Source: Bacteroidales bacterium
Lineage (GTDB): Bacteria > Bacteroidota > Bacteroidia > Bacteroidales > JAFGHD01
DNA: 64,000 bases
Direction of reading: 5' to 3'
Assembly (NCBI GenBank): GCA_016939365.1
Contig: JAFGHD010000020.1
Coordinates: 1,758-65,757, forward strand
In this document: positions 45,214-60,240 of the stretch, piece after piece
Numbering within the stretch: position 1 is the first letter of the stretch
How the letters are laid out: each line of letters starts with the position of its first letter
Made by a program: the position numbers and the translations under genes
Notes under the pieces: model-generated
What the model was told of the DNA's origin: nothing
What the model saw: the letters and a program-made list of their open reading frames with translations, nothing else
Database searches by the model: none

Positions 45214-46746
45214 TCAGGAAATATCAGAAAGGATAGCTGATAACCTTGACAAAGCCTGTCTGATCCGTGTACGTCCTGCCTCGGCGGCGTCTTCCGACAT
45301 CTCTTTCACCTTCTTTTTCTTCCCTTCACTGATATATTTCATCACCCGTTCCGTTGCAGCCGGATCGATTTCCCTGATAAGGACAGATAAATCGAACGGG
45401 TCAGCCTTGCTGATAAACTTCCTGAGGTCCTTGACTTTCAGCCCCAACAAATCAGGGTATGCAACCGTTTTTCCGGGTCTCATCACAGCGGAGACTTTGA
45501 CGGATGGTGCGGTTGATCTGACGCGGATTCCGGAAGCCGGACCCGGCATGTCTTCCTGGACGGCTTCATCCAGTCTGATCATAAAATCAGACAGGACATT
45601 CATGTAATTGATAAAAGCTTCGTAGGGTGTCGCGTAAGGGTTGAAGTACCTGTGGACATCGCCGTCGGAGAACCATTTGGTACACATGTAGTAAAAATGG
45701 TCGCTCGCCTGAAGATTGTTCCAGTCGTTCAGTAGCCGGCCGTCCCTGCACTGACGGACTTGATCTGAAATGCTGTAGAGTCTCGCGAATGCCTCATCCT
45801 GCATCTCATTGCCCAGCCAGGCGGTCAGGTCCCGTTCCTCGTCGGCCCAGGATATCGGGTGCGGAACGGATATTTCAGCAACAGGCCGGTGCATGGAGGA
45901 CAATTCAGCGGGAGTCCGGAAAGCAAAATCAGAATCCTTTAGCAACATTCCGGGTAGGGATTCCATGAACTGGAAAATACCCGAATCAGCCGGCTGATGC
46001 TCTCCCAGGGTCTCGTAATCAATGAAAATATTTACGATTTCCTGATCCTGATCCAGGTTGTTGATCCATCCCGCATATTTTTCTGCAGTGAGCGGCCATT
46101 CATTCCAGCTTTTGTCTGAAAACCGGAAGGCAATATCATCACTCAACCTGAAATTCTTGAGGAGCAGGTTCAGCCCTGTCCTGGTCGGATTACGATACAG
46201 ATAATTCGGGCTTTTCCATCCGAGTATGTGTTTAGCCCCCTCAGTAAGCAAAGTATTATATCCCATATCATACACCATCTCTCCGATCTGATCGGAGTAA
46301 ACCAGCTCGGTATTCCTGAAAGTAGCAGGCCTGATGCCAAAAAGCTCATTCATTTTGTGGCTGTGGGCCTCCACCTGGCGGATGAATTCCTCTTTGCTGA
46401 CCAGGGATGCAAGCGAATGGGCATAGGTCTCGGTGAGAAATTCCACAGATCCGGTAGCAGCAAGTTCCTTAAAGCTATCGAGCACAGCAGGGGCAAACAT
46501 CTCAAACTGATCGACCGCCAGACCCGAAATGGAGTAACTGATCCGGAACCGGTCCCCGTATTTTCCGATCAGGTTGAGCATCATTCTGTTGGCAGGCAGA
46601 TAACATTTGTCCGCGATCCTTTGCATGATAGACCGGTTGAGGAAATCATCGTAATAATAATGATCTGAACCAATGTCGAAAAACCGGTAGGTTCTCAGCC
46701 TGAAAGGCTGGTGTACCTGAAAGTACAGACAGATTGATCTCATCAA
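45214..46746 (-). CDS. Glycoside hydrolase family 57 (alpha-amylase-like) with a FliG-C-like C-terminal extension
   Basis: QVHQP, ETYAHSL, FRNTEL, DYETLGEH and SDHFYYM motifs, plus an extra domain of about 80 aa after a Pro/Ser linker. Confidence 0.9.
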   Translation of the reverse strand: MMRSICLYFQVHQPFRLRTYRFFDIGSDHYYYDDFLNRSIMQRIADKCYLPANRMMLNLIGKYGDRFRISYSISGLAVDQFEMFAPAVLDSFKELAATGSVEFLTETYAHSLASLVSKEEFIRQVEAHSHKMNELFGIRPATFRNTELVYSDQIGEMVYDMGYNTLLTEGAKHILGWKSPNYLYRNPTRTGLNLLLKNFRLSDDIAFRFSDKSWNEWPLTAEKYAGWINNLDQDQEIVNIFIDYETLGEHQPADSGIFQFMESLPGMLLKDSDFAFRTPAELSSMHRPVAEISVPHPISWADEERDLTAWLGNEMQDEAFARLYSISDQVRQCRDGRLLNDWNNLQASDHFYYMCTKWFSDGDVHRYFNPYATPYEAFINYMNVLSDFMIRLDEAVQEDMPGPASGIRVRSTAPSVKVSAVMRPGKTVAYPDLLGLKVKDLRKFISKADPFDLSVLIREIDPAATERVMKYISEGKKKKVKEMSEDAAEAGRTRIRQALSRLSAILSDIS

Positions 46747-48047
46747 ATATGATTTTCTTTGCTATTGGCAACAACATCCCTGTACACTTCCACAATATGG
46801 GATGCAGCATTTTCCCACTTCAGATGATCAACTTCAGCCCGGCCATACCGAACAAACATCTTGGAGAGTGCCGGATAATGGATCAGGCCATAAATGGCAT
46901 CTGCCATACCATTGACATCCCAGAAATCCACCTTGATGGCATGCTTGAGTACTTCCGCCACGCCGGATTGCTTGGAGACAACAACGGGCACATTGGTTCT
47001 CATAGCTTCCAGGGGAACCAGCCCGAAGGGTTCTGATACGGATGGCATGACAAAGACATCGCTCATGGCGAACATCCTGTCCACATCATCTCCCCTCAGA
47101 AAACCTGCGAAGTGGAACCTGTCGGCTATTTTCAGCTGTGCTACGCGCCGTACCATTTTATACAGCAAATCCCCTGAACCGGCCATAACAAAACGGATAT
47201 TACGGTCTCTGGTGAGCACCTTATGTGCTGCTTCAATAAAATACTCAGGTCCTTTCTGGAAAGTGATCCTGCCCAGAAATGAAACAATATACTCCCTGAC
47301 GTTTTTTTGTGTGTTGAGCAATTCAGGTTTCTCAATTGTTTCAATGGCATTATGTACAGTGACCACCTTATCGGGATTGATACCATACCGGTCGATCACA
47401 ATACGGCGGGTAAGGTGGCTGACTGCGATGACACAGTCGGCGGCCTCCATTCCGCGACGTTCAATATCATAGACCAGGGAGTTGATATTTTCACCAGATC
47501 TGTCAAATTCCGTTGCATGAATATGGACAACCAGGGGTTTTCCGCTCATTCTTTTCGCGGCAATACCGGCATAATAAGTCAACCAGTCGTGGGAATGGAT
47601 AATGTCGAACTCATGCTGGGCGGCAATGGCACCACCTACCAGTGCATACCTTGACACCTCCTCCATCAGGTTCTGTCCGTATTTACCTGAAAAGTGGTAT
47701 TTTGCTGAGAACACCCGGTTCCGGAGTTCTTTTTCTTCCCTGACGGTTTCGCGGTATATTCGTTCAAATTCCTCCGGGCCCAGATAGGGAACCAGGTTGG
47801 CTCCCACTTCGATATAGCTGAGGTTGTGTGCCAGCTGGCGGAATTCCTGGTCATAGATGTTCACAGCTACATCACTTGCATTGATGAGACGGACTGCCTG
47901 CTGGTCTTCATCGCCGAAGGCTCTGGGAACCACAAAAAGAACCTGAACGCCGTGCTTCATCAGGCCTTTGGTCATCCCATAGCATGCGGTGCCCAGCCCC
48001 CCTGAGATATGGGGTGGAAACTCCCAGCCGAACATCAGTACCCTCAT
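46743..48047 (-). CDS. GT4 glycosyltransferase (glycogen synthase-like)
   Basis: GWEFPPHISGGLG, HSHDW, LGRITFQKG and PSVSEPFGLVPLEA motifs. Confidence 0.9.
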   Translation of the reverse strand: MRVLMFGWEFPPHISGGLGTACYGMTKGLMKHGVQVLFVVPRAFGDEDQQAVRLINASDVAVNIYDQEFRQLAHNLSYIEVGANLVPYLGPEEFERIYRETVREEKELRNRVFSAKYHFSGKYGQNLMEEVSRYALVGGAIAAQHEFDIIHSHDWLTYYAGIAAKRMSGKPLVVHIHATEFDRSGENINSLVYDIERRGMEAADCVIAVSHLTRRIVIDRYGINPDKVVTVHNAIETIEKPELLNTQKNVREYIVSFLGRITFQKGPEYFIEAAHKVLTRDRNIRFVMAGSGDLLYKMVRRVAQLKIADRFHFAGFLRGDDVDRMFAMSDVFVMPSVSEPFGLVPLEAMRTNVPVVVSKQSGVAEVLKHAIKVDFWDVNGMADAIYGLIHYPALSKMFVRYGRAEVDHLKWENAASHIVEVYRDVVANSKENHI

Positions 48048-50005
48048 GATGCAACAGTGTGTTTACAAAGGATATCAATGAGATATTTCATTCTTAAAAG
48101 CTCGGCCACACTCCATGCCTGTGAGATTGAGCCCCTTGGTCTGTGGGGAGGGTCTCCATCATAAATCTCAGAAATACTGCCCACTCCATGTTCAGCCAGC
48201 TCATCTTCAAAACCATAGTAAAGCTTTCTAATGAGCGGCAATCCTGATCTCCCGTGAAGGCGGAGATATCCTTCGGCAAAATGGCCCAACATCCATGGAA
48301 AAACGGATCCCTGATGATAGGCTGTATCACGCTGGGCGGAACTTCCTTCATATATGCCCCTGTATTCCGGATGATCGGGGGCGAGAGATCTTAATCCCCT
48401 GATTGTCAATAGCTCACTTTCAATATGATCGAACACCTTTTTCCTGACATCCTCAGGAACAGGGGAATAAAGCAGGGATGCGGTAAAAATCTGGTTTGGT
48501 CTGAAACTCCAGTCCGGCTTCCCGTTATACACTACATCGGCCAGGTATCCTTTCTCCTCATTCCAAAAAACCTTCATGAATGATGCTGGAATACTCCGTG
48601 CCAGCTCCAGCCAATCTGAGACAGCCCCCTGATACTTTGAATCCCTGAAAAGATCCAGGGTAAACATGATGGCATGATACCATAGGGCATTGAGATCAAC
48701 AGCCAGGCCAGTGCGCGGTGTAACGGGCATCCCTTCCACCACGGCATTCATCCATGTCACGGGTTTCCCCTCTATGCCTGCACCCAAAAGTCCATCCTCC
48801 TGCATATGGATCTGGTGTGAAGTCCCCTTTCGGTATTCCGAGAGTATCATCCGGATCAGTTCCCCGTAACGCTTCCTGATCCTTTCACGGTCACCCGTGA
48901 ACTGCACGTATTGCTGCAAAGCCCAGATGAACCACAGTGATGTGTCTGCGGACTCGTAAAATGATTCATTCCCCTTTCTGTAATCAGGGAAAAAAGGGCC
49001 CTTCATGCGACGGACCATGGTGTCGATAACAGAGAAGAAAGTCAGGTGGTCATTGCGGGTGAGCATAAGGCCGGGAATTGAGATGAATGTGTCGCGGCCG
49101 ATCACATCAAACCAGGGGTAGCCGGCAATGATTTCAGTATCTCCGTTGCGCCTGATGACAAACTGGTCTCCCGAATTATGAAGGCAGTGCTCAAAACTGT
49201 CACGGGGGGTCCTCGATCTGAGTTCCTTACTGAAAAGCCTTTTCAGCGTGGAGGGATCCTTGCCGGAAATCCCGGCTGAAAACATCACACTCTCCCCCTT
49301 TTTTATGTCCAGCTCGAAGTATCCGGGGACCCACAGATCTTCCTTGAAATCATATCCCCGTTCCTCCTCCCGGTCATATTCCAGGCCGAAATACCAGTCC
49401 GGGGCATGGTGATACTCCACCTGTTTGGAGAACTGCATGTAAACGGGTGTGTAGTTAGGGTACAAGCTCATCATGATCCCGTTGGGAATGGAATCATACC
49501 CGGTACGCACATCGGAATTTGCGCTGCTCAGCATGTGGCGCTGTCTGAATGCCAGGAAAGGCCTTAAGCGGAGTTTTGTGGGAGAATGGGCTTCTACCAA
49601 ACTGTACCTGATCAGGATTCGGTCGTCAATGGAGGAAAAAACCCGCTCGACCGTCAGTACCACCCCGCCAACGGTGTAGGTCAGATGCGGAATCGGATCC
49701 GATCTGAAATCCCTGATGTATTTGTGCCCTTTCGGATTGTACAGGTTATTCCGGTACTTGTGTATGCCGAGGTTGAATTCAGCATTACGCTGTATTACAG
49801 TAACATCCAGAGAAGAAAGCAAAACATGAAGCTCGTGATCGATCTCCGGTTGACGAACGATCAGTAATCCATGATACTTCCTTGTATTACAGCCAACAAT
49901 CGTCGTTGTCGCAAACGACCCCATACGGTTTGACCTGATAAGCTCCTTCGAGAGTGAATACTCAAGATTGACCAGTTCATTCTTATCAAATTCAATATAT
50001 CCCAT
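48044..50005 (-). CDS. Glycogen debranching enzyme (amylo-alpha-1,6-glucosidase, GDE_N + GDE_C)
   Basis: NTRKYHGLL, IIAGYPWF, GRDTFIS, TWM, RPNQ, YHQGSVFPW, SEIYDG and SQAWSVAE motifs. TATATTTG box at 50034-50041. Confidence 0.93.
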   Translation of the reverse strand: MGYIEFDKNELVNLEYSLSKELIRSNRMGSFATTTIVGCNTRKYHGLLIVRQPEIDHELHVLLSSLDVTVIQRNAEFNLGIHKYRNNLYNPKGHKYIRDFRSDPIPHLTYTVGGVVLTVERVFSSIDDRILIRYSLVEAHSPTKLRLRPFLAFRQRHMLSSANSDVRTGYDSIPNGIMMSLYPNYTPVYMQFSKQVEYHHAPDWYFGLEYDREEERGYDFKEDLWVPGYFELDIKKGESVMFSAGISGKDPSTLKRLFSKELRSRTPRDSFEHCLHNSGDQFVIRRNGDTEIIAGYPWFDVIGRDTFISIPGLMLTRNDHLTFFSVIDTMVRRMKGPFFPDYRKGNESFYESADTSLWFIWALQQYVQFTGDRERIRKRYGELIRMILSEYRKGTSHQIHMQEDGLLGAGIEGKPVTWMNAVVEGMPVTPRTGLAVDLNALWYHAIMFTLDLFRDSKYQGAVSDWLELARSIPASFMKVFWNEEKGYLADVVYNGKPDWSFRPNQIFTASLLYSPVPEDVRKKVFDHIESELLTIRGLRSLAPDHPEYRGIYEGSSAQRDTAYHQGSVFPWMLGHFAEGYLRLHGRSGLPLIRKLYYGFEDELAEHGVGSISEIYDGDPPHRPRGSISQAWSVAELLRMKYLIDILCKHTVAS

Positions 50006-50138: not shown

Positions 50139-50363
50139 TCATCGAAAGAAATTGCGCCGGATGTCATGAAGTCTCTTTAGAGAATAAACTGCTGCCGCGA
50201 CCATGATCCATAAGATGCCGCCATCCATCGGTGCCCCTCCTCCAACCGGCAAATCTCCTGAACCGGGACCACCTCCGGGATTGGGAGGTTCATCGGGAAA
50301 AACTGATGATGAAACGAGAACAAAGAATATCACAATAAGCAATGTCGCTGGTATTTTTTTCAT
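50139..50363 (-). CDS. Stand-alone PID-CTERM-like protein-sorting microprotein
   Basis: MKK plus hydrophobic signal, Pro/Gly linker, APMDGG, TM helix and basic tail KRL...RR. Start moved to ATG 50363. Confidence 0.75.
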   Translation of the reverse strand: MKKIPATLLIVIFFVLVSSSVFPDEPPNPGGGPGSGDLPVGGGAPMDGGILWIMVAAAVYSLKRLHDIRRNFFR

Positions 50364-50579
50364 AAGCCTATTCATTAATATAGGTATCCAATTCAATATG
50401 ACAAAACATCAAACCATCCGCACACGGAAAAGTTACCGACCGTAACGATCAAATTCCATGCAAAACTTTAATCCCACCTTCTTTCCGTTACTTACTCCTT
50501 CGAACTGCATGAAATATTCCATTCCTGGGAACAGGTAAGACCAAATTGAAACCTTGTCAGGAAAGCCTTATTTTTTTAT

Positions 50580-50587
50580 TATATTTG
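50580..50587 (+). promoter_or_regulatory. -7 promoter box for the TonB receptor operon
   Basis: TATATTTG about 25 nt before ATG 50613. Confidence 0.65.
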
Positions 50588-50612: not shown

Positions 50613-52976
50613 ATGAACAGGGGAGCATGCATAGCCCTGATATTGTTTTCATTGTCATATTACGCCTGCGCGCAAAGCGGTCTGATCATTACCGGAAAGA
50701 TACTCGACGGGGATGAGTTGCATCCTGTCCCCGGGGCGGAAATCATCCTGAACGAAAAATCTGTCGGAACACTAAGTGATGCCTATGGAAACTTCCGTCT
50801 GGACGGACTTTCATCCGGCACTATCACATTAACGGTCAGGCATATCGGGTATAAGGTATTGCGAAAGAAGGTTGAGCTGGCGGATGAAAACATCGAGTAC
50901 CTTACACTTTTGCTGACTCCTGATATTAAAACATTATCTGAATTCGTACTCACTGATAAGGCACCCGGCCGAAGTCGTATACCGGGCAAGGCCATTCCGG
51001 TATCCCGCATGAGTCCTCTGACTGACGGAACCGTGCAGCATGATCTGGGAGATTATATGCGAAATGCCGCCAACATCTCCGGCATCAGGAAAGGTGCCAT
51101 CGGCATTGATCCGGTGATCAGGGGATTCAAATACAGCCAGTTGAACGTCCAGATAAACGGAGGTCACAAGATCGAAGGGGGGTGCCCCAACCGGATGGAC
51201 CCGGCAACTTCACATGTTGAAATGGAAGACCTTGAATCTGTATCTGTGATAAAGGGGCCTTACGCATTGAGATTCGGCCCTTCGCTCGGTGGTGTCATCT
51301 CCCTGGAAACGCATATTCCGGTCACGGCCAGTGATTTTTATACATCGGTTCATACCTTGCTGGGTTACGAAAGTAACTGGAACGGTTTCCGGGAACACCT
51401 GCGTGTTACTGCCGGCGGCAGGGGATACTTCCTCTCCATTACCGGGGGAAGGAAGGAATATGATGATTACAATGCGGGAACCGGAGATTTAATCCCCTCT
51501 TCATTCACAAGATACAACTTCAAATTACAGGCGGGAGCCCTGCTGTCCGATCATCAGAAGCTGGTTCTGAGTGCAGAAGAGCAAAATGGCTATCATGTTG
51601 CATTTCCCGCCTTGCCCATGGATGAACGGCGCGACCACACCCGCCTTGCCTCAATGGACTATTCTTACCTTCCGGAGGAAGGCCGGATCCGGTCAATCAT
51701 TGCAAAAGCGTATTATTCCGTTATCAATCATCTAATGGACAATAAAGAAAGACCCTCTTCGGATACCGTGACGGCGGTATCAGAGATCGATGCGGTGAAC
51801 AGGGGAGTCCGTATGGAAGCAAGCCTGCATGCCGGTCAGGGAAATCTGACCCTGGGAGTGGATATTGAGAATATTCTGAAGGACGGTCAGAGGACCAAGT
51901 CGATGATCCTGCAACCTGCATTACCGGTAAAAAGGGAAAGTCTTTGGAATAGAGGCGTTATTGTCAATACAGGTTTCTTCACGGATTATTCCCTGATGCT
52001 CGGAAGTTATGAAGTCACACTGGCCGCACGGCTGGATATAAACCATGCGGAATCAGGAGCACTTGAGGTCTTTGGCGGTAACCAGCAGGAGTTGTACAGG
52101 TTCGGTAAAGACTCGATCCGGTCGGATTTTCTGAATTTTAGTGTGAGTGCCGGTGTCCATAGGATGCTGAATGAGTATGTCTCGTTTTCACTTGCACTGG
52201 GAAGAGGTGTCAGAAGCCCCGATATGACAGAACGATTTATTATCCTTCTTCCGATCGGTTACGATCCCTTTGATTATCTGGGGAATCCTGCCCTTAAACC
52301 TGAAACCAACAACCAGATTGACATCGGCCTGAAATATCAGCAGCCGCAATGGGGTGAAGCCGGTTTGACCTGCTTCTACTCCCTTGTGGAAAATTTTATT
52401 ACAGGACAAATCATTCCACCCTCCGTTCAGAAGCCTCTGTCCAAAGACGTTGTGGGAGTAAAAAAATTCCACAACGGGGGCCTTGCCAGGCTAAGGGGAT
52501 TCGAAATGGAATATACCTCCCCTGGCAGCCTGCTGATCTCGGGAGGTATCCGCGCATCTTTCACATACGGTACTATCGCTGAAGCGGTGCAATATACCAC
52601 CGACGGACAGGGTGATCCCACAGGACAGGAGGTGATCGCGAATGATGCACTGTCTGAAATACCACCCTTTGAAGCAAGTGGGTTCATTCAGGGGAACATC
52701 GCAGGAGGCAAACTGAAACCCAAAATCTCCTGCAGGCTGGTAGCTCCCCAGAATCATGTTTCAGAAGTACAGTATGAAAAAAAGACACCCGGCTTCATCG
52801 TGGCGAACATCGCCTTCATCGCCAGGCTTAACGGGCATATCGAAATAAACGGGGGGGTGAACAATCTGTTCGATGCATCCTATTATGAACATCTGAACCG
52901 GAACATCATAGGTTCGGAATTGCCGTTATATGAACCCGGCCGTGTTTTTTATATCAACCTGGTTTTTTCATTATGA
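50613..52976 (+). CDS. TonB-dependent receptor, OprC-like copper receptor
   Basis: Signal peptide and CarboxypepD_reg-like N-domain. Plug has DPVIRG, GGCPNRMDP (CxxxM) and VIKGPY. Barrel has NHLMDN (HxM), GNPALKPE, NNLFD..YYEHL and EPGR. Confidence 0.88.
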   Translation: MNRGACIALILFSLSYYACAQSGLIITGKILDGDELHPVPGAEIILNEKSVGTLSDAYGNFRLDGLSSGTITLTVRHIGYKVLRKKVELADENIEYLTLLLTPDIKTLSEFVLTDKAPGRSRIPGKAIPVSRMSPLTDGTVQHDLGDYMRNAANISGIRKGAIGIDPVIRGFKYSQLNVQINGGHKIEGGCPNRMDPATSHVEMEDLESVSVIKGPYALRFGPSLGGVISLETHIPVTASDFYTSVHTLLGYESNWNGFREHLRVTAGGRGYFLSITGGRKEYDDYNAGTGDLIPSSFTRYNFKLQAGALLSDHQKLVLSAEEQNGYHVAFPALPMDERRDHTRLASMDYSYLPEEGRIRSIIAKAYYSVINHLMDNKERPSSDTVTAVSEIDAVNRGVRMEASLHAGQGNLTLGVDIENILKDGQRTKSMILQPALPVKRESLWNRGVIVNTGFFTDYSLMLGSYEVTLAARLDINHAESGALEVFGGNQQELYRFGKDSIRSDFLNFSVSAGVHRMLNEYVSFSLALGRGVRSPDMTERFIILLPIGYDPFDYLGNPALKPETNNQIDIGLKYQQPQWGEAGLTCFYSLVENFITGQIIPPSVQKPLSKDVVGVKKFHNGGLARLRGFEMEYTSPGSLLISGGIRASFTYGTIAEAVQYTTDGQGDPTGQEVIANDALSEIPPFEASGFIQGNIAGGKLKPKISCRLVAPQNHVSEVQYEKKTPGFIVANIAFIARLNGHIEINGGVNNLFDASYYEHLNRNIIGSELPLYEPGRVFYINLVFSL

Positions 52977-53356
52977 CAGTAATACACCACATGAAAACCC
53001 TGATCATACTGAATATGATCATCATCCTGGCTGCAATGTTGGGGTGCACCCGTTATGACGAAAAATTGGCGGTCGAGTATAGTATCTCCAAATCCTATTC
53101 GGATGTCAATGTTCAATTCCGTGATGGGGATGGTGTTTTACGCGACACGATAATTCATTTGCAGAGCATTGAGGATCAATGGCAATACCATTTTGAGGCC
53201 AGACGGGGAGATATAGTGTATGTATCGGCCATCTACTTCGATTCCTCATCCACTGTCACGGCAGGAATCCTATTGGAAGGCAAACTGTTCAAACAGGGAA
53301 GCAGCAATAAGGAACCCGGAAAATACGTTACTGTATCCGGGACGGTACCCTATTAA
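52973..53356 (+). CDS. Small beta-sandwich lipoprotein (MmpS-like)
   Basis: Lipobox MLGC and alternating beta pattern. Start overlaps the receptor stop (ATGA). Confidence 0.7.
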   Translation: MTVIHHMKTLIILNMIIILAAMLGCTRYDEKLAVEYSISKSYSDVNVQFRDGDGVLRDTIIHLQSIEDQWQYHFEARRGDIVYVSAIYFDSSSTVTAGILLEGKLFKQGSSNKEPGKYVTVSGTVPY

Positions 53357-53364
53357 ACAACCAG

Positions 53365-54174
53365 ATGGAACGTCTCATTAAATTATTATTCATAGCCGCA
53401 GCGGGTATCGCCCTTCTGGCAGGTTGCAAGAAAGAGACAAAAATCACCGAAGTGAGCAGCGGCAAGATCATCATTTGTTTTGATCACCGGGTGGATGACC
53501 TGCCCATGGTCCGTGACTCCCTGATGTACACCAATGAGGCGGGCAATCCATACATGATCAATGAAATTCAATATTTCATTTCAGACTTCACCCTTTATGG
53601 TGCCGGCGGAAGCCAGGTGGTCATCGATGATTGGAAAGACATCCATTATGTGGATACGGATATTCCCGAAACATGGACATGGGAAGTCTATGACGAGATA
53701 CCCCAGGGATGGTACGATTCTGTTTCCTTCACCTTCGGCATCACTGCCGAAAAAAATAAATCGTTCATGTATGTCAATCCTCCCGAAAGGGATATGTTCT
53801 GGCCGGAATATCTGGGAGGGGGATACCACTACCTGAAACTGAACGGCAAATGGCTGCCGGCAGGTCAGGCATACCAGACCAGGCCCTTTGATTTCCACCT
53901 CGGTATCGGTCAGATATACTTCAGCTATCCCGACTCCATCACCGGATATGTGCAAAACTATTTCACGGTATGTCCTCCGGGTTCTGCCCTTCAGGTGATC
54001 AATGGCCAATCCACGAAATTCAACATCGTCATGAATATTGAAAACTGGTTCAAGGAGCCCCATATTTATGATCATGACCAATGGGGCGGTTATATCATGC
54101 AGAACCAGGATGCCATGGCTTTGGCAAGGGAAAACGGACACAATGTATTCACTTTGGAACTGTGCAAAAAATGA
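53365..54174 (+). CDS. MbnP family copper-binding lipoprotein
   Basis: Lipobox LAGC. YTNEAG..Y.I...YFISDF, YDSVSFTFG, MFW....GGYHYLKLNG and FHLG motifs. Upstream of an MbnH-like gene. Confidence 0.82.
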   Translation: MERLIKLLFIAAAGIALLAGCKKETKITEVSSGKIIICFDHRVDDLPMVRDSLMYTNEAGNPYMINEIQYFISDFTLYGAGGSQVVIDDWKDIHYVDTDIPETWTWEVYDEIPQGWYDSVSFTFGITAEKNKSFMYVNPPERDMFWPEYLGGGYHYLKLNGKWLPAGQAYQTRPFDFHLGIGQIYFSYPDSITGYVQNYFTVCPPGSALQVINGQSTKFNIVMNIENWFKEPHIYDHDQWGGYIMQNQDAMALARENGHNVFTLELCKK

Positions 54175-54827
54175 ATACCTACAGGCTGCTGTCCGGCATG
54201 GTTATTCTGTTATGGGGTTTCCTTCCAGGGTGCAGGGAAAAAGATGACATTCCTCCTGTGATCACATTGAAGGGAAGCGGTTACATGACCACCGAACTCA
54301 ACCAGCCATTTTCCGATCCCGGTGTTACTGCAACAGATGATTCGGATGGAGATATTACGTCAAGGGTATACGTTGAAAGTGATCTGGACATCGACCGGGT
54401 GGGGATTTACAATCATGTTTACCGGGTGACTGATCAATCCGGTAATACAGCCAATCCGTTGGTCCGGGAAATTGAGGTGGTTAACGGATCGAGGCAATAC
54501 GAAGGCAACTATAACGGAACAGATAAAGGAATGTTCCCGGATGCGGACAGCCTGGCCTTCAGCACATATCTACGGTTTGATTCCACACTGAATCACAGAA
54601 TGATCTTCTCCGGTTTCGGAGGGCAATCCGGCTGGGTTGTGATGGCAGATATCTCCGGGGGATTGATGATCATTCCCTTTCAGGTAATCCAGGATTCTCT
54701 GGGTGGGTTCAATATCCAGGGGGCGGGCACGGTCAGCGACACCCTGATTGAAATGAATTATACACGTGAAACAGAAACAGAAATTCTTCTGAGAAATGCC
54801 GTTTTCAACAAAATACCGAAAGGATAA
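54171..54827 (+). CDS. Lipoprotein with a DUF5011/bacterial Ig-like domain
   Basis: Lipobox LPGC. PPVITLKG...FSDPGVTATDDSDGDIT...G.Y...YRVTDQSGN...R. Start moved to ATG 54171 (ATGA overlap). Confidence 0.85.
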   Translation: MNTYRLLSGMVILLWGFLPGCREKDDIPPVITLKGSGYMTTELNQPFSDPGVTATDDSDGDITSRVYVESDLDIDRVGIYNHVYRVTDQSGNTANPLVREIEVVNGSRQYEGNYNGTDKGMFPDADSLAFSTYLRFDSTLNHRMIFSGFGGQSGWVVMADISGGLMIIPFQVIQDSLGGFNIQGAGTVSDTLIEMNYTRETETEILLRNAVFNKIPKG

Positions 54828-56004
54828 ATATGGCCTTCAAATGCCAGGTTTGTTCCCGGTAGCGGTCATTGTCGCTTCATTGATTTTCAGTTGCAGCAAA
54901 AAGGATGACGGCACGGAACCAGAACAGCCCTATCAACCACATCCATACTCCCTGGAAATACCCTATGGATTTCCCACCCAGTTGAATATTCCTTCAGACA
55001 ACCCGCTCACAGAAGAAGGGGTGGCATTGGGAAGATACCTTTTTTATGACGGCAGGCTGGGGGGACGCGACCACCCCGACTCCCTGATGAGCTGTGCCAC
55101 ATGCCATCTTCAGCAAAATGCTTTCGAATGTGGTACGGATCACCCGGTATATACCAACGGATTTACCCATGGCATCAACGGTAAACCGACTCCCCATGTA
55201 ATGCTGCCGTTGTTCAATCTCGTCTGGAACAGTAACGGTTATTTCTGGAATGGCCTTGTCGGTCCCGACAATCCAGACGAGCATTACCGGAATATCGAGG
55301 ATATAGTATGGATGGGTGTAGTGGTCGAGCACGAAATGGACAGCGATACGAACCGTGTCAGGGAACTCATACAGTCCATACCGGGCTATCCCGACCTGTT
55401 TGAAAAAGCGTTCGGGTCGCGCCAGGTAACGATGCGGAATATCGGAAGGGCCGTTGCACAATTCATCAGGACGATCACATCGGCCGAATCAAAATTCGAC
55501 AGGTATCTGCGCGGGGAAGAACAGCTCTCTCCGCAGGAGTTGAATGGATTTGTTCTTTTTACCACTGAAGAGGGGGCAGACTGTTTCCACTGCCATGGCG
55601 GCTCGGGAAATCCCCTTTTTACGACCAACAAGTTTTACAATAACGGCAAGGATTCATTGTTTACCGGACCGTATGAGGATCCAAGGGACCGGTATCATGT
55701 CACCGGCGACCCCATGGACCTGGGCGCATACAAAGCCCCAACCCTGAGAAATATCATCTTTACTGCACCCTATATGCATGACGGCCGTTTCGCTACACTA
55801 GACTCTGTAATCCATTTTTACAATACCAGTCTGGTCTGGTCACCCTATATCGATCCTCTGATGCATCATATTGCCAATGGCGGAACACAGATGATTCCCC
55901 AGGAAGTCAGCGATCTGAAAGCCTTCATTCTTTCACTTACCGATTATCAGATCCTCAGCGACCCCGACCTGGGTCCTCCTGAGAAGTTTCCCGACGAGGA
56001 GTAG
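54796..56004 (+). CDS. Di-heme cytochrome c peroxidase superfamily lipoprotein (MbnH/MauG-like)
   Basis: Lipobox IFSC. NPLTEEGVALGRYLFYD, two CxxCH motifs (CATCH, CFHCH) and YKAPTLRNI.FTAPYMHDGRF. Alternative start at 54841. Confidence 0.92.
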   Translation: MPFSTKYRKDKYGLQMPGLFPVAVIVASLIFSCSKKDDGTEPEQPYQPHPYSLEIPYGFPTQLNIPSDNPLTEEGVALGRYLFYDGRLGGRDHPDSLMSCATCHLQQNAFECGTDHPVYTNGFTHGINGKPTPHVMLPLFNLVWNSNGYFWNGLVGPDNPDEHYRNIEDIVWMGVVVEHEMDSDTNRVRELIQSIPGYPDLFEKAFGSRQVTMRNIGRAVAQFIRTITSAESKFDRYLRGEEQLSPQELNGFVLFTTEEGADCFHCHGGSGNPLFTTNKFYNNGKDSLFTGPYEDPRDRYHVTGDPMDLGAYKAPTLRNIIFTAPYMHDGRFATLDSVIHFYNTSLVWSPYIDPLMHHIANGGTQMIPQEVSDLKAFILSLTDYQILSDPDLGPPEKFPDEE

Positions 56005-57780: not shown

Positions 57781-60240
57781 TCAGGAGGGTTTGATTTTGG
57801 TGGGGATTGAGAAGTAGAATGTGGATCCTTCACCCAGGCGCGAAACGACCCACAACTTACCCCCGAGAAGGCCCGCAAGTTGCCTGGAAATAGCGAGGCC
57901 CAATCCTGTACCTCCATAGCGCCGGGTATGGGAATCATCCCCCTGCATGAACCGTTCGAATACCTTGTCGATCTTATCCTCCGGTATACCGGGTCCCGTA
58001 TCGCGAACGAAGAAAACGAAATGGTTTTCGCCCTCAGTATTATCCGTTTCGTATCCGAATTCCACGCTCCCCTCCTCTGTGAACTTTAATCCGTTCCCGA
58101 TCAGGTTATACATAATCTGCCTCACCCTGTGCGGATCCGTATAACATATGGAGCTATGAGGCATCCCGGGTAGCCTGAGATCCAGCTTTACCGCACGGGT
58201 GGTACGTGTCCGATCCATTTCTTCAAACAATCCGGTCATCAATTCCCTCATATCACATTCAGCAAATGAGAGATTCAGCTGTCCTGCCTCGATCTTTGAA
58301 ATATCAACAATATCATTGATGATGTGCATCAGAGTATTGCTTCCGTTAATGATATATTGAAGGTATTCCCTGGATTTCCTGGCAGAGAGGCCCTGATCCA
58401 GGAGCAGGTGTGCAAACCCCACCAGGGAATTCATCGGGGTCCTGATCTCGTGTGACATGTTTGCCAGAAAGGCTGATTTCAGCCGGTCCGATTCTTCGGC
58501 CTTATCCCTGGCCATTTTGAGCTCTTCGATAAACCGGCTTCGCTCAGTCACATCAATGATATTTGTGACCACTGCAACCGAGTTTCCCCTGGAATCCCTG
58601 ATTGAGGCACTGGAAAGCTCGGCGATGAATGAGGTATCGTCACTGCGAAGCAATCTGTAATCATTCCGGACATTCTTGCCCTGTATCATGGCTTTCCTGA
58701 AGTTTTCCGCTGCCAGTGTCCTGTCCTCCCGGGGAATGAAATCCGTTATGTTTTTTCCGATAATCTGATCCCTGGAGTCAAGTCTGAAAAGCTTTAGTCC
58801 TGCAGGATTGCAGTCAATAATGACACCGTTTGCATCGGCCAGTGAAATGCCGTGCGGCGAGGATGTAAAGATTTGCCTCAGGGTCTCCTGGTCTTTCTGA
58901 AGGGTTTCCTCAGCTTTCCTGATCTGCCTGTTCATCCTGAAAAGCAGAAAGGAAATGATCAGCAATGCAATGGAAAAGCCGACGATTCCGGCAATGATCA
59001 TGTTTTTCCTGTGCAGTGCATCCCTGTTGTGGGCGATCTCCAGGTCCTTAAGTTGCTGATCGCTTGTCAGACGATCAATTTCGCTCTCCATCCTTCCGGT
59101 CTGGTATGCATTCTGGATTTCGATGAGACGGTTGTTGTAACGCTGGTTTTCAAGGCTGTCCTGGAATTTATCATACATCAGATACTGCTCAAATGCTGAG
59201 GCATAATCACCCTGTCTTTCAAAGAGTACACTGAAATTCTTTCTGATGTTTTTCAGATCATTGATATCCCCTGTTTTCTGAGCATCAGCCAAAGCCCTGG
59301 AAAGGAAATCACCTGCAGCGGAATATTCTCCCTTTTCAATATACACCTGGGCAATATTATTCAATATCAGCGCACTCTCCAGTCCGATCTGCCGGTTTTG
59401 CCTGAGCGCTTCCTCGTAATAATAGACTGCCCGGTCAAAATCCTTCCGGAGATAATGGATCCTTCCCAGGTTATTATATACATTGGCAAGACCTTCGGGG
59501 TTATCAGAATCACGAATTGCCGCAATGGACCTGATGAAATGCTCCCGGGCTGTTTCCAGATCACCCTTGTCCATATGGATCATCCCGATATTACTGAGCA
59601 ATATATGTATGAATGCCTTGTTCTTCAAATGCTCTGCATAATCGAGGGCTGTCCGGAAGTTCGCAAGTGCCTCATCCAGACTGCCGATGGAATAGTAAAT
59701 GGATCCGATATTGTTAAACGAACTGATCTCTGACAAAGAATCATGCATGGCTTTTTTCATTTTAAGGGAATGAAGGTGATATTCGAGGGAGCGACGGTAC
59801 AATCCCATCCTGTTAAACACCACCCCGAGGTTATTGGAGGCTTTTGCCATGCCCATGGTATCACCGAGGGTCCGGTAGATCGTTAGGCTCGAATCATAAT
59901 ATCTGAAGGCAAAGTCATTTTCACCCGTATAATAATGGATATTACCGGCATTCTTCAGGGCATTTGCAAGTGCGGCCCGATCACCTGACTTCCTGGCCAA
60001 GGACAAGGCTGAATCAGCCAGTATAAGGGCGGACTCGGACGATCGGCCGGTCATCCCGGCTGATAAACTGATCAGGCTTTCCACTCTTTTTAACAAGGAG
60101 CTGTCCGTGCTATTACCCGAACCGGCAGCCTGTGGCATCGCAAAAACCGGGAGGAGTACCAGACAGATAATGGTGAAGCGGTTTAATCCCGAACCTGCAA
60201 TTATCCTCGACTGCACTGTATGAGAAAGCCCAACATTCAT
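57781..60240 (-). CDS. TPR-TM-PAS sensor histidine kinase
   Basis: NNLG/NNIG TPR repeats, TM helix, PAS, H-box FLANMSHEIRTPMN, NLIGNGLKF, DTGPGI and GGTGLGL. Confidence 0.92.
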   Translation of the reverse strand: MNVGLSHTVQSRIIAGSGLNRFTIICLVLLPVFAMPQAAGSGNSTDSSLLKRVESLISLSAGMTGRSSESALILADSALSLARKSGDRAALANALKNAGNIHYYTGENDFAFRYYDSSLTIYRTLGDTMGMAKASNNLGVVFNRMGLYRRSLEYHLHSLKMKKAMHDSLSEISSFNNIGSIYYSIGSLDEALANFRTALDYAEHLKNKAFIHILLSNIGMIHMDKGDLETAREHFIRSIAAIRDSDNPEGLANVYNNLGRIHYLRKDFDRAVYYYEEALRQNRQIGLESALILNNIAQVYIEKGEYSAAGDFLSRALADAQKTGDINDLKNIRKNFSVLFERQGDYASAFEQYLMYDKFQDSLENQRYNNRLIEIQNAYQTGRMESEIDRLTSDQQLKDLEIAHNRDALHRKNMIIAGIVGFSIALLIISFLLFRMNRQIRKAEETLQKDQETLRQIFTSSPHGISLADANGVIIDCNPAGLKLFRLDSRDQIIGKNITDFIPREDRTLAAENFRKAMIQGKNVRNDYRLLRSDDTSFIAELSSASIRDSRGNSVAVVTNIIDVTERSRFIEELKMARDKAEESDRLKSAFLANMSHEIRTPMNSLVGFAHLLLDQGLSARKSREYLQYIINGSNTLMHIINDIVDISKIEAGQLNLSFAECDMRELMTGLFEEMDRTRTTRAVKLDLRLPGMPHSSICYTDPHRVRQIMYNLIGNGLKFTEEGSVEFGYETDNTEGENHFVFFVRDTGPGIPEDKIDKVFERFMQGDDSHTRRYGGTGLGLAISRQLAGLLGGKLWVVSRLGEGSTFYFSIPTKIKPS

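Follow-up and report, generated by a model that had tools for sequence, protein, structure and literature searches.

We analysed a stretch of 64,000 nucleotides (nt) of contig JAFGHD010000020.1 (positions 1,758–65,757; hereafter the window, to which all coordinates refer) from an uncultured sediment Bacteroidales bacterium whose genome, GCA_016939365.1, is 97.5% complete. The window holds five genes on the + strand that encode an OprC-type TonB-dependent receptor and four lipoproteins, among them relatives of MbnP and MbnH. The original prediction had described these genes as a candidate copper acquisition system that works without a chalkophore. From the results given below we consider it probable that the operon is a TonB-dependent system for the acquisition of ionic copper in uncultured Bacteroidales and related lineages, working by the steps that we propose in the last section.

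Gene 1 (50613..52976) encodes the receptor of 787 amino acids (aa), which was identified with Pfam, TIGR01778 and the OprC structure 6FOK. It is followed by gene 2 (52991..53356, with an alternative start at 52973) for a 121-aa MmpS-fold lipoprotein, recognised by Foldseek and delimited by the starts of its homologues. Gene 3 (53365..54174) encodes a 269-aa lipoprotein of the MbnP family, identified by PF20243 and by Foldseek to 7L6G. The product of gene 4 (54171..54827) is a 218-aa immunoglobulin-like (Ig-like) lipoprotein with PF16403 in its N-terminal half and no assigned domain in its C-terminal half. Gene 5 (54841..56004, alternative start at 54796) encodes a 387-aa di-haem lipoprotein of the MauG/MbnH type (PF03150, TIGR04039).

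As had been described, the five co-oriented and tightly packed open reading frames (ORFs) lie behind a single box, TATATTTG (50580..50587, + strand), 26 nt 5' of the receptor ATG. We call it a promoter box for its pattern, TAnnTTTG, which we take to be the Bacteroidota –7 promoter consensus. In the whole window this pattern is not enriched, with 33 matches against 27.8 expected. Its position is conserved: of 46 related loci, 37 have a copy 10–120 nt 5' of the start inferred for the receptor, compared with 7.6% of random 118-nt windows. A CruR-like leader peptide was considered and rejected because only 26 nt separate the promoter box from the receptor start.

The 8-nt gap that had been claimed was found between genes 2 and 3. 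Two ATGA overlaps had also been reported, and the one shared by genes 3 and 4 is present. The junction of genes 1 and 2 is probably a 14-nt gap and not an overlap, because the homologues of gene 2 begin at the methionine that matches position 52991 and not at the ORF opening at 52973. Homologues of gene 5 begin at the methionine of 54841, which leaves a 13-nt gap after gene 4. The lipoboxes described for all four downstream products could be confirmed in each as a cysteine behind a hydrophobic leader that is kept in homologues: C19 of gene 2 in 68 of 68, C21 of gene 3 invariant, and C21 of gene 4 and C18 of gene 5 conserved.

The OprC-type receptor and its predicted small lipoprotein partner

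The receptor has the architecture of a TonB-dependent transporter, with a plug (PF07715) and a barrel (PF00593) that score above the Pfam cut-offs, and it carries a CarboxypepD_reg-like domain (PF13715) at the N-terminus. Its best NCBIfam model is TIGR01778 (TonB-copper) at 212 bits, about 95 bits above the next model but short of the equivalog cut-off of 472.45. Models of haem and haemoglobin receptors also match with E-values of 1e-33 to 1e-34, and all of the NCBIfam scores are below cut-off. When solved structures were searched with phmmer, OprC (6FOK) was the best relative with an E-value of 2.7e-38, and the next structure followed at 1.3e-08.

In the phmmer alignment to 6FOK, ggCPNRMDp of the receptor lies on gaCPNRMDa of OprC and nHLMDN lies on dHIMDN. 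The GGCPNRMDP motif with its cysteine codon at 51183 and the NHLMDN motif are therefore where the original prediction had placed them: the plug CxxxM is encoded by the codons for C191-P-N-R-M195 (51183..51197, + strand), and the barrel-wall HxM, aligned on OprC H323-I-M325, by those for H373-L-M375 (51729..51737, + strand). C191, M195, H373 and M375 are in register with Cys143, Met147, His323 and Met325, the copper ligands of OprC (PMC8610252). Both motifs are invariant in the alignment of the receptor family. Among related receptors that cover these sites, GGCPNRMD was found in 55 of 55 and HxMDN in 60 of 60; these counts leave out 11 and 6 homologues, respectively, that end at contig ends. 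With the ligands in register and invariant in relatives, the proposal of an OprC-like copper site in this receptor is supported, and we infer that the receptor would bind copper directly at a buried site made of these four residues.

The methionine track of OprC (Met286, 339, 341, 343 and 348), which is surface-exposed and located on L5 (PMC8610252), is largely replaced. Only the counterpart of Met286, M336, is retained in the receptor. The segment opposite OprC Met338–343 is DNKERPSSDTVTAVSEID, which contains no methionine, and this Met-free stretch in place of the OprC loop is itself conserved as the motif NKxRPFSDTVVAVS.

The original prediction had counted two Ig-like lipoproteins in the operon. 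An Ig-like Pfam domain, PF16403, is present in gene 4 alone, and the designation did not hold for gene 2: Pfam and NCBIfam searches of its product and 24 relatives gave no match. Its family has 469 members at an E-value of 0.001 in a collection of 5.8 billion proteins. The best 120 of these 469 have no Pfam domain on record and are 113–138 aa long (mostly 118–122 aa); few of the 120 are named, two as 'choline kinase' and the others as 'hypothetical'. Searched against 1.84 billion representatives, the protein found 19 clusters at 1e-30, 60 at 1e-10 and 556 at 1e-3. The structure of gene 2 was modelled with a predicted local distance difference test (pLDDT) value of 94.6, and the top Foldseek matches of the model were MmpS5 and MmpS4 (8EM5 with a template modelling score (TM) of 0.76 normalised to the target; 9MVZ with an E-value of 3e-05). 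PF05423 (MmpS) was passed by 2 of 25 remote relatives and matched by 0 of 25 family members. The MmpS assignment is thus made through the fold and a bridge of remote relatives and not through a Pfam match of gene 2 itself.

The mycobacterial proteins MmpS4 and MmpS5 (PF05423) are accessories of MmpL transporters in siderophore export. The gene 2 product is like them in its small β-sandwich fold and in being a small partner encoded beside a large transporter. It differs from them in that a lipid cysteine and not a transmembrane helix would anchor it, and its partner would be an outer-membrane barrel and not an inner-membrane resistance-nodulation-division pump.

Because the genes for the receptor and the small lipoprotein always travel together (see below), this pair was chosen for complex prediction. 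The median interface score (ipSAE) was 0.63, with 0.02, 0.67 and 0.63 in the three runs, and the best of three controls gave 0.00. The mark used to judge such scores is reached by 58 of 80 solved complexes and by 2 of 110 mismatched pairs, a calibration that holds only roughly here because we supplied our own alignments. The complex runs share at least 71% of contacts and the pLDDT of the partner is at least 83. On the receptor the modelled interface comprises residues 327–328, 378–379, 383–384, 387, 430 and 432–437, which map beside the equivalent of OprC Met286, onto OprC 328–342 (the methionine-track loop) and onto OprC 385–392. Because the interface falls in the region of the methionine-track loop, the lipoprotein in the model sits on the outside of the barrel, above the route that copper takes to the buried site. 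The complex model supports, and does not demonstrate, the predicted binding of the gene 2 lipoprotein to the receptor.

The MbnP-like protein, the di-haem enzyme and the Ig-like lipoprotein

Gene 3 matches PF20243 with an E-value of 1.4e-22 (80.9 bits against a cut-off of 27), whereas an NCBIfam search at an E-value of 0.01 gave no match, TIGR04052 included. Its subfamily comprises 1607 proteins at an E-value of 0.001 among 2109 candidates. The best 120 of the 1607 are 55–67% identical to gene 3 (the window's own protein, 100%), and every organism named among these 120 is a Bacteroidales or Bacteroidetes metagenome-assembled genome (MAG). Most of the 120 are unnamed or 'hypothetical', with one 'MbnP family protein' and one 'MbnP-like', so that NCBI naming already places some relatives of gene 3 in this family. 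The AlphaFold model of gene 3 has a pLDDT of 85. Six chains of 7L6G head its Foldseek list with an E-value of 1.5e-07, a probability of 1.00 and a TM of about 0.5; the next match has an E-value of 3e-03. Because of the Pfam match together with the 7L6G fold, gene 3 belongs to the broad MbnP family. Its earlier identification as MbnP is borne out for a distant member.

The copper site of 7L6G consists of a His, a Met, water and Kyn174, which comes from a Trp of a WxW motif (PMC11951088). A methanotroph MbnP from an annotated plasmid served as reference; it matches 7L6G with an E-value of 8.7e-79 and has the motif MAWNW. We aligned 12 members of the subfamily with 7 sequences from other phyla (5 annotated MbnPs, 1 MbnP-like protein of Deinococcus and 1 unrelated protein of Diaphorobacter) using MAFFT. 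In this alignment M144-F-W146 falls on M-x-W of MAWNW, H178 shares a column with the His of H-L-G-S, and M245 pairs with the Met of C-M-S. The candidate copper-site codons are 53800–53802 for W146, 53896–53898 for H178 and 54097–54099 for M245 (+ strand), and none of the three residues varies among the 27 subfamily sequences. W146 was taken as the modified residue since it is presumably the first Trp of WxW that becomes kynurenine. The mapping comes from one MAFFT alignment, because the sequence searches and hhalign did not reach the canonical site. From these data a conserved copper site in gene 3 is plausible. The lipid Cys21 is the only invariant cysteine in the subfamily.

Gene 5 contains PF03150. 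Among NCBIfam models it fits TIGR04039, the MbnH family, best, with 189 bits where the cut-off is 362.85; the MauG model reached 120.5. The best solved relative is 6E1C with an E-value of 4.2e-40; this entry is deposited only as 'Di-heme enzyme' and we take it to be MbnH. The two haem motifs, C85xxC88H89 (55093–55107, + strand) and C248xxC251H252 (55582–55596, + strand), and also Y327 are conserved in 74 sequences. Y327 sits in the segment aligned to 'iYs' of 6E1C. We assume that its position is that of the Met sixth ligand of the second haem in bacterial peroxidases, and a Tyr ligand would presumably correspond to that of MauG. By family and by structure gene 5 is closest to the MbnH-type enzymes, which agrees with its earlier identification, although it remains below the family cut-off.

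Gene 4 matches PF16403 (surface Ig-like) with an E-value of 1e-16, and this domain occurs in all 15 of the homologues that were scanned from the 26 found. The possibility that gene 4 encodes a BT_2262-like protein was rejected, PF16404 being found in 0 of these 15 homologues at an E-value of 1. The lipid Cys is the only Cys, His or Met of the protein that is conserved.

Conservation of the gene unit and genome context

We surveyed species-representative genomes with an MbnP profile and kept 80 of the 248 confirmed loci. Nearly all of the 80 come from MAGs of Bacteroidales, Lentimicrobiaceae or other Bacteroidota. Of these MbnP-centred loci, 47 had room for every gene and are called complete loci here. 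The order receptor–small lipoprotein–MbnP–MbnH was found in 26 of the 47, and 12 more add the Ig-like gene and so have all five genes. Other complete loci had only MbnP–Ig-like–MbnH (3), only MbnP–MbnH (3), or receptor–small lipoprotein–MbnP without MbnH (3). An MbnH-type gene stands beside MbnP in 60 of 65 loci with room for it. The receptor and the small lipoprotein were gained or lost as a pair in the surveyed loci.

A second sample consisted of 58 metagenome contigs centred on the small lipoprotein. The receptor was directly upstream in 41 of 42 and MbnP no more than 900 nt downstream in 36 of 42; MbnH was found in 24 of 29 and the Ig-like gene in 5 of 29. The small lipoprotein is a constant companion of the receptor. 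Whether both accessory lipoproteins go with the core of receptor, MbnP and MbnH had been named as a check on the original prediction, and the answer differs between them: gene 2, present in 67 of the 75 loci with room for it, is conserved with the core; gene 4, found in 25 of 78 such loci and in 12 of the 47 complete ones, is not. Gene 4 is optional in the operon, and its Ig-like lipoprotein would be a dispensable addition in one sub-lineage.

In a sample spread evenly over the phylum, 44 of 401 genomes matched the MbnP profile, and the window's genome, the only one with more than 130 bits, alone has the subfamily of gene 3. Ten of the better neighbourhoods in this sample comprised eight with MbnP next to MbnH, one with MbnP alone and one with MbnH alone, and an OprC-type receptor or the small lipoprotein was found in 0 of the 10. 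Among the 80 loci, a search for other conserved neighbours gave no family in more than 27 of 80, this count being that of one 354-aa family. The 222-aa and EamA genes downstream in the window have relatives in 0 of the 80.

Glycogen-type genes lie divergently upstream of the operon at 45214–50005 on the – strand (GH57-like, glycosyltransferase and debranching-enzyme-like, read from translations), and they are syntenic with the operon in 14 of the 80 loci. At two loci that have neither receptor nor small lipoprotein the same glycogen genes are in place, so this pair was lost there. Between the glycogen genes and the operon, the – strand contains an 85-aa ORF (50139–50396) with a signal-like leader and a middle part rich in Pro and Gly, and it has counterparts in 0 of the 80 loci. 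A TPR-PAS-histidine kinase of 819 aa (57781–60240, – strand) is encoded 1.8 kb downstream of the operon; it is probably not the operon's regulator because similar proteins occur in only 6 of the 80 loci.

Some related loci have other arrangements. In one (L066:6920-11977), MbnP–MbnH directly follow four genes that resemble those for ExbB, two ExbD and TonB, as judged by their N-terminal parts, and there is no receptor within 10 kb. A related MAG (L027:10334-12574) has fragments of MbnP, the Ig-like gene and MbnH in ORFs of 133, 125, 251 and 178 aa and lacks the receptor pair; this locus looks like a decaying copy of the operon. A plasmid of Chondrinema litorale (Cytophagales; L086:6965-11300) has the order peroxidase, MbnP, a 127-aa Cys-rich ORF, MbnP and peroxidase. 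This mirrored pair of pairs has an efflux system and a gene for a putative outer-membrane protein of 327 aa beside it. As candidate relatives of gene 2, the small ORFs next to MbnP and MbnH on this plasmid were rejected, being unrelated.

The window's genome has one MbnP gene, one OprC-type receptor and one gene for subunit I (COX1) of a haem-copper oxidase with a CuA-like domain nearby. This oxidase is the only copper enzyme detected in the genome; our search found no multicopper oxidase domain, and no NosZ match exceeded its cut-off. A look for RNA sequencing runs that contain the operon's stretch of DNA gave none. The absence of methanobactin genes that had been noted for the window extends to the 97.5%-complete genome, in which neither MbnB nor MbnC was found, the blank for MbnC being a weak one as its model was silent in control genomes too.

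A proposed copper acquisition pathway and its alternatives

The receptor resembles OprC (PA3790 of P. aeruginosa) and NosA (P. stutzeri) as a plug-barrel TonB transporter with CPNRMD and HxMDN in register and with Met336 in the place of Met286. It differs from them in its extra CarboxypepD_reg-like N-terminal domain, in a TIGR01778 score far below the cut-off and in the Met-free motif that replaces the Met338–343 loop. The partners differ as well, these being the MmpS-fold lipoprotein and MbnP/MbnH here and the PepSY-type PA3789 for OprC (PMC8610252). The same paper describes OprC as conserved in Proteobacteria and its periplasmic partner as unidentified (PMC8610252), and for the flavobacterium Bizionia a receptor with CxxxM and HxM has been reported (PMC11213822).

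Genes 3 and 5 resemble MbnP/MbnH of Methylosinus trichosporium OB3b (7L6G and 6E1C; the 'metallo-mystery pair' TIGR04052/TIGR04039) in being adjacent with MbnP first, in the MbnP fold, in a Met-x-Trp motif, a His and a Met that fall in matching columns of the MAFFT alignment and in a di-haem partner that is closest to the MbnH type. The locus also adjoins a TonB-dependent transporter, as do isolated Methylosinus pairs, and such MbnPH pairs near TonB transporters outside methanobactin operons were described in 2013 (PMC3621798). By contrast with OB3b, both counterparts are lipidated here, the adjoining transporter is of the OprC type and not the MbnT type, methanobactin genes were not found in the genome, and gene 3 has no TIGR04052 match.

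The copper-regulated operons of Proteobacteria that begin with cruR, which encodes a copper-sensing leader, are reported to include TIGR01778 transporters and MbnPH-like genes (Roy et al., mBio 2022, PMC9426467). Because that paper lists both in CruR operons, the link between OprC-type and MbnPH genes is already in print. The present locus differs from those operons in its phylum, in having no PepSY_TM gene and in the 26 nt, too few to accommodate a leader ORF. In PMC9426467 we found no mention of the MmpS-fold lipoprotein; Fig. 7 and a supplementary table of that paper may give the exact combinations of genes. Our literature searches turned up no paper that describes this operon in Bacteroidota, the family of MmpS-fold lipoproteins or the combination of such a lipoprotein with an OprC-type receptor; published neighbourhood surveys and their supplements may list related orders. 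The five-gene operon is a lineage-specific version of an already known kind of copper system, and what distinguishes it is a lipidated MbnP subfamily without the four-Cys motif, an OprC-type receptor without the methionine-track loop and a constant MmpS-fold partner that is predicted to sit at the place of this loop.

By homology and conservation, the copper reading of the five-gene locus appears well founded. In the pathway that we consider probable, the receptor would take up copper at the buried C191/M195/H373/M375 site and pass it inward using TonB energy. The 121-aa MmpS-fold lipoprotein would be a fixed accessory of the receptor on three consecutive barrel loops, of which, in the model, at least the middle one corresponds to the extracellular methionine-track loop of OprC and is Met-free in this receptor. 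The MbnH-type enzyme would oxidise W146 of MbnP to kynurenine, giving a copper site with H178 and M245. By analogy with the Methylosinus MbnP/MbnH, MbnP would then take copper from the transporter in the periplasm and deliver it to cuproproteins. The likely consumer would be the genome's single haem-copper oxidase, and chalkophore genes would not be involved.

Several results weigh against parts of this pathway. Both the receptor (212 against 472 bits) and the di-haem enzyme (189 against 363 bits) are far under the NCBI equivalog cut-offs. The gene 3 product shares only 14% identity with 7L6G and lacks the second Trp of WxW and the four-Cys motif. No solved MbnP was found with a subfamily profile made from 27 relatives, nor with phmmer of gene 3, and hhalign to the Methylocystis MbnP spans only the N-terminal 100 columns with a probability of 19.7%. 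The W146/H178/M245 mapping depends on a single MAFFT alignment and on the presumed identity of the modified Trp, and the motif around W146 lies in the only low-confidence stretch of the model (136–153, pLDDT below 50). Six of the 47 complete loci have MbnP–MbnH without the receptor and three have the receptor without MbnH. In the gene 2 product no Cys, His or Met other than the lipid Cys is conserved, so it gives no hint of metal binding, and one of its three runs with the receptor scored 0.02. The original prediction had joined direct import of copper ions to an MbnP that depends on Trp oxidation. In this the families, the ligands and the gene linkage have stood; the MbnP part is weakened by the missing four-Cys motif and second Trp, and the assignments of the receptor and the MbnH-like enzyme by their sub-cut-off scores.

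Another point concerns where the lipoproteins reside. Behind the lipid Cys, all four lipoprotein families have K-(D/E)(D/E), with a mean of 2.2–2.4 acidic residues at positions +1 to +7, and we take this Lys-acidic stretch to resemble the signal by which Bacteroidota export lipoproteins. It favours exposure at the surface and argues against an MbnP in the periplasm. The four lipoproteins could then form a complex on the cell surface like SusCD or BtuBG, in which MbnP with its kynurenine acts as a protein chalkophore that feeds the CxxxM/HxM site and MbnH matures MbnP at the surface, as has been suggested for MopE/CorA of methanotrophs and the di-haem proteins paired with them. We regard such surface capture as possible but unlikely. 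The modelled position of gene 2 on receptor residues 327–328, 378–387 and 430–437 fits with it, since these correspond to the loops of OprC Met286 and Met338–343, and so does the domain of gene 4, which is named for surface proteins of Bacteroides. The methionine track of OprC has been called surface-exposed, on L5 (PMC8610252), and MopE is surface-associated and has a kynurenine copper site (PMC3621798, PMC11951088). On the other side, OprC binds ionic copper without a partner (PMC8610252), MbnP–MbnH pairs also occur without a nearby receptor, and the export-signal reading is a resemblance of motifs only. In addition, c-type haem is attached in the periplasm, and we found no literature record of Bacteroidota exporting a di-haem lipoprotein in folded form. 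Kenney (2019) reportedly described the canonical MbnP and MbnH as periplasmic. For the fullest form of this idea, a surface 'copper utilisome' in which gene 2 caps the OprC-type barrel at the place of the methionine track and lipidated MbnP, kynurenine-matured by lipidated MbnH, is an extracellular protein chalkophore feeding the transporter, our confidence is slightly lower still, and we hold it as doubtful. We rank MbnP as a periplasmic acceptor first and an all-surface set second.

It is also conceivable, though in our judgement improbable, that the receptor imports copper in complex with a small ligand or with a chalkophore of foreign origin and that MbnP/MbnH strip the metal after import. 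When a methanotroph loses mbnP or mbnH, copper-bound methanobactin stays outside the cells, in the medium, from which the authors infer a role in copper release or uptake (PMC13729199), and the CrtA transporter family imports chelated copper (PMC12914433). The methionine-track loop of OprC is not kept in the receptor, so the entry of free Cu(I) may differ. However, the four ligands with which OprC holds the bare ion are invariant in the receptor family, no chalkophore synthesis genes were found in the genome, and CrtA-type transporters cluster apart and have no conserved Cys and Met (PMC12914433). Least likely of all, and in our view very improbable, is a locus that does not serve copper, with a receptor for haem, zinc or another thiophilic metal and a di-haem enzyme that oxidises an MbnP-like residue for some other purpose. 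The matches of the receptor to haem and haemoglobin models (E-values of 1e-33 to 1e-34, with every NCBIfam score below cut-off) and the indirect mapping of the MbnP-like copper-site residues would be in line with this. Against it, the TonB-copper model leads all other NCBIfam models by about 95 bits, the E-value of OprC is 30 orders of magnitude below that of the next solved structure, and the CPNRMD and HxMDN motifs are invariant. Every characterised kynurenine protein of the MbnP or MopE/CorA type binds copper (PMC11951088).

The pathway with receptor-mediated import of ionic copper and a periplasmic MbnP touches on two open questions, namely how Gram-negative bacteria acquire copper and what MbnP and MbnH do outside methanobactin operons. 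Here an OprC-type site is tied to MbnP/MbnH in one conserved operon in a genome in which no methanobactin genes were found, and an unnamed lipoprotein family is added as the regular companion of the receptor. If the surface utilisome were true, MbnP and MbnH would gain a defined role that is independent of methanobactin, and OprC-type import of ionic copper would have its first partner protein. The carriers are uncultured Bacteroidales of sediment and sludge, and the operon may show how microaerobic sediment bacteria secure trace copper.

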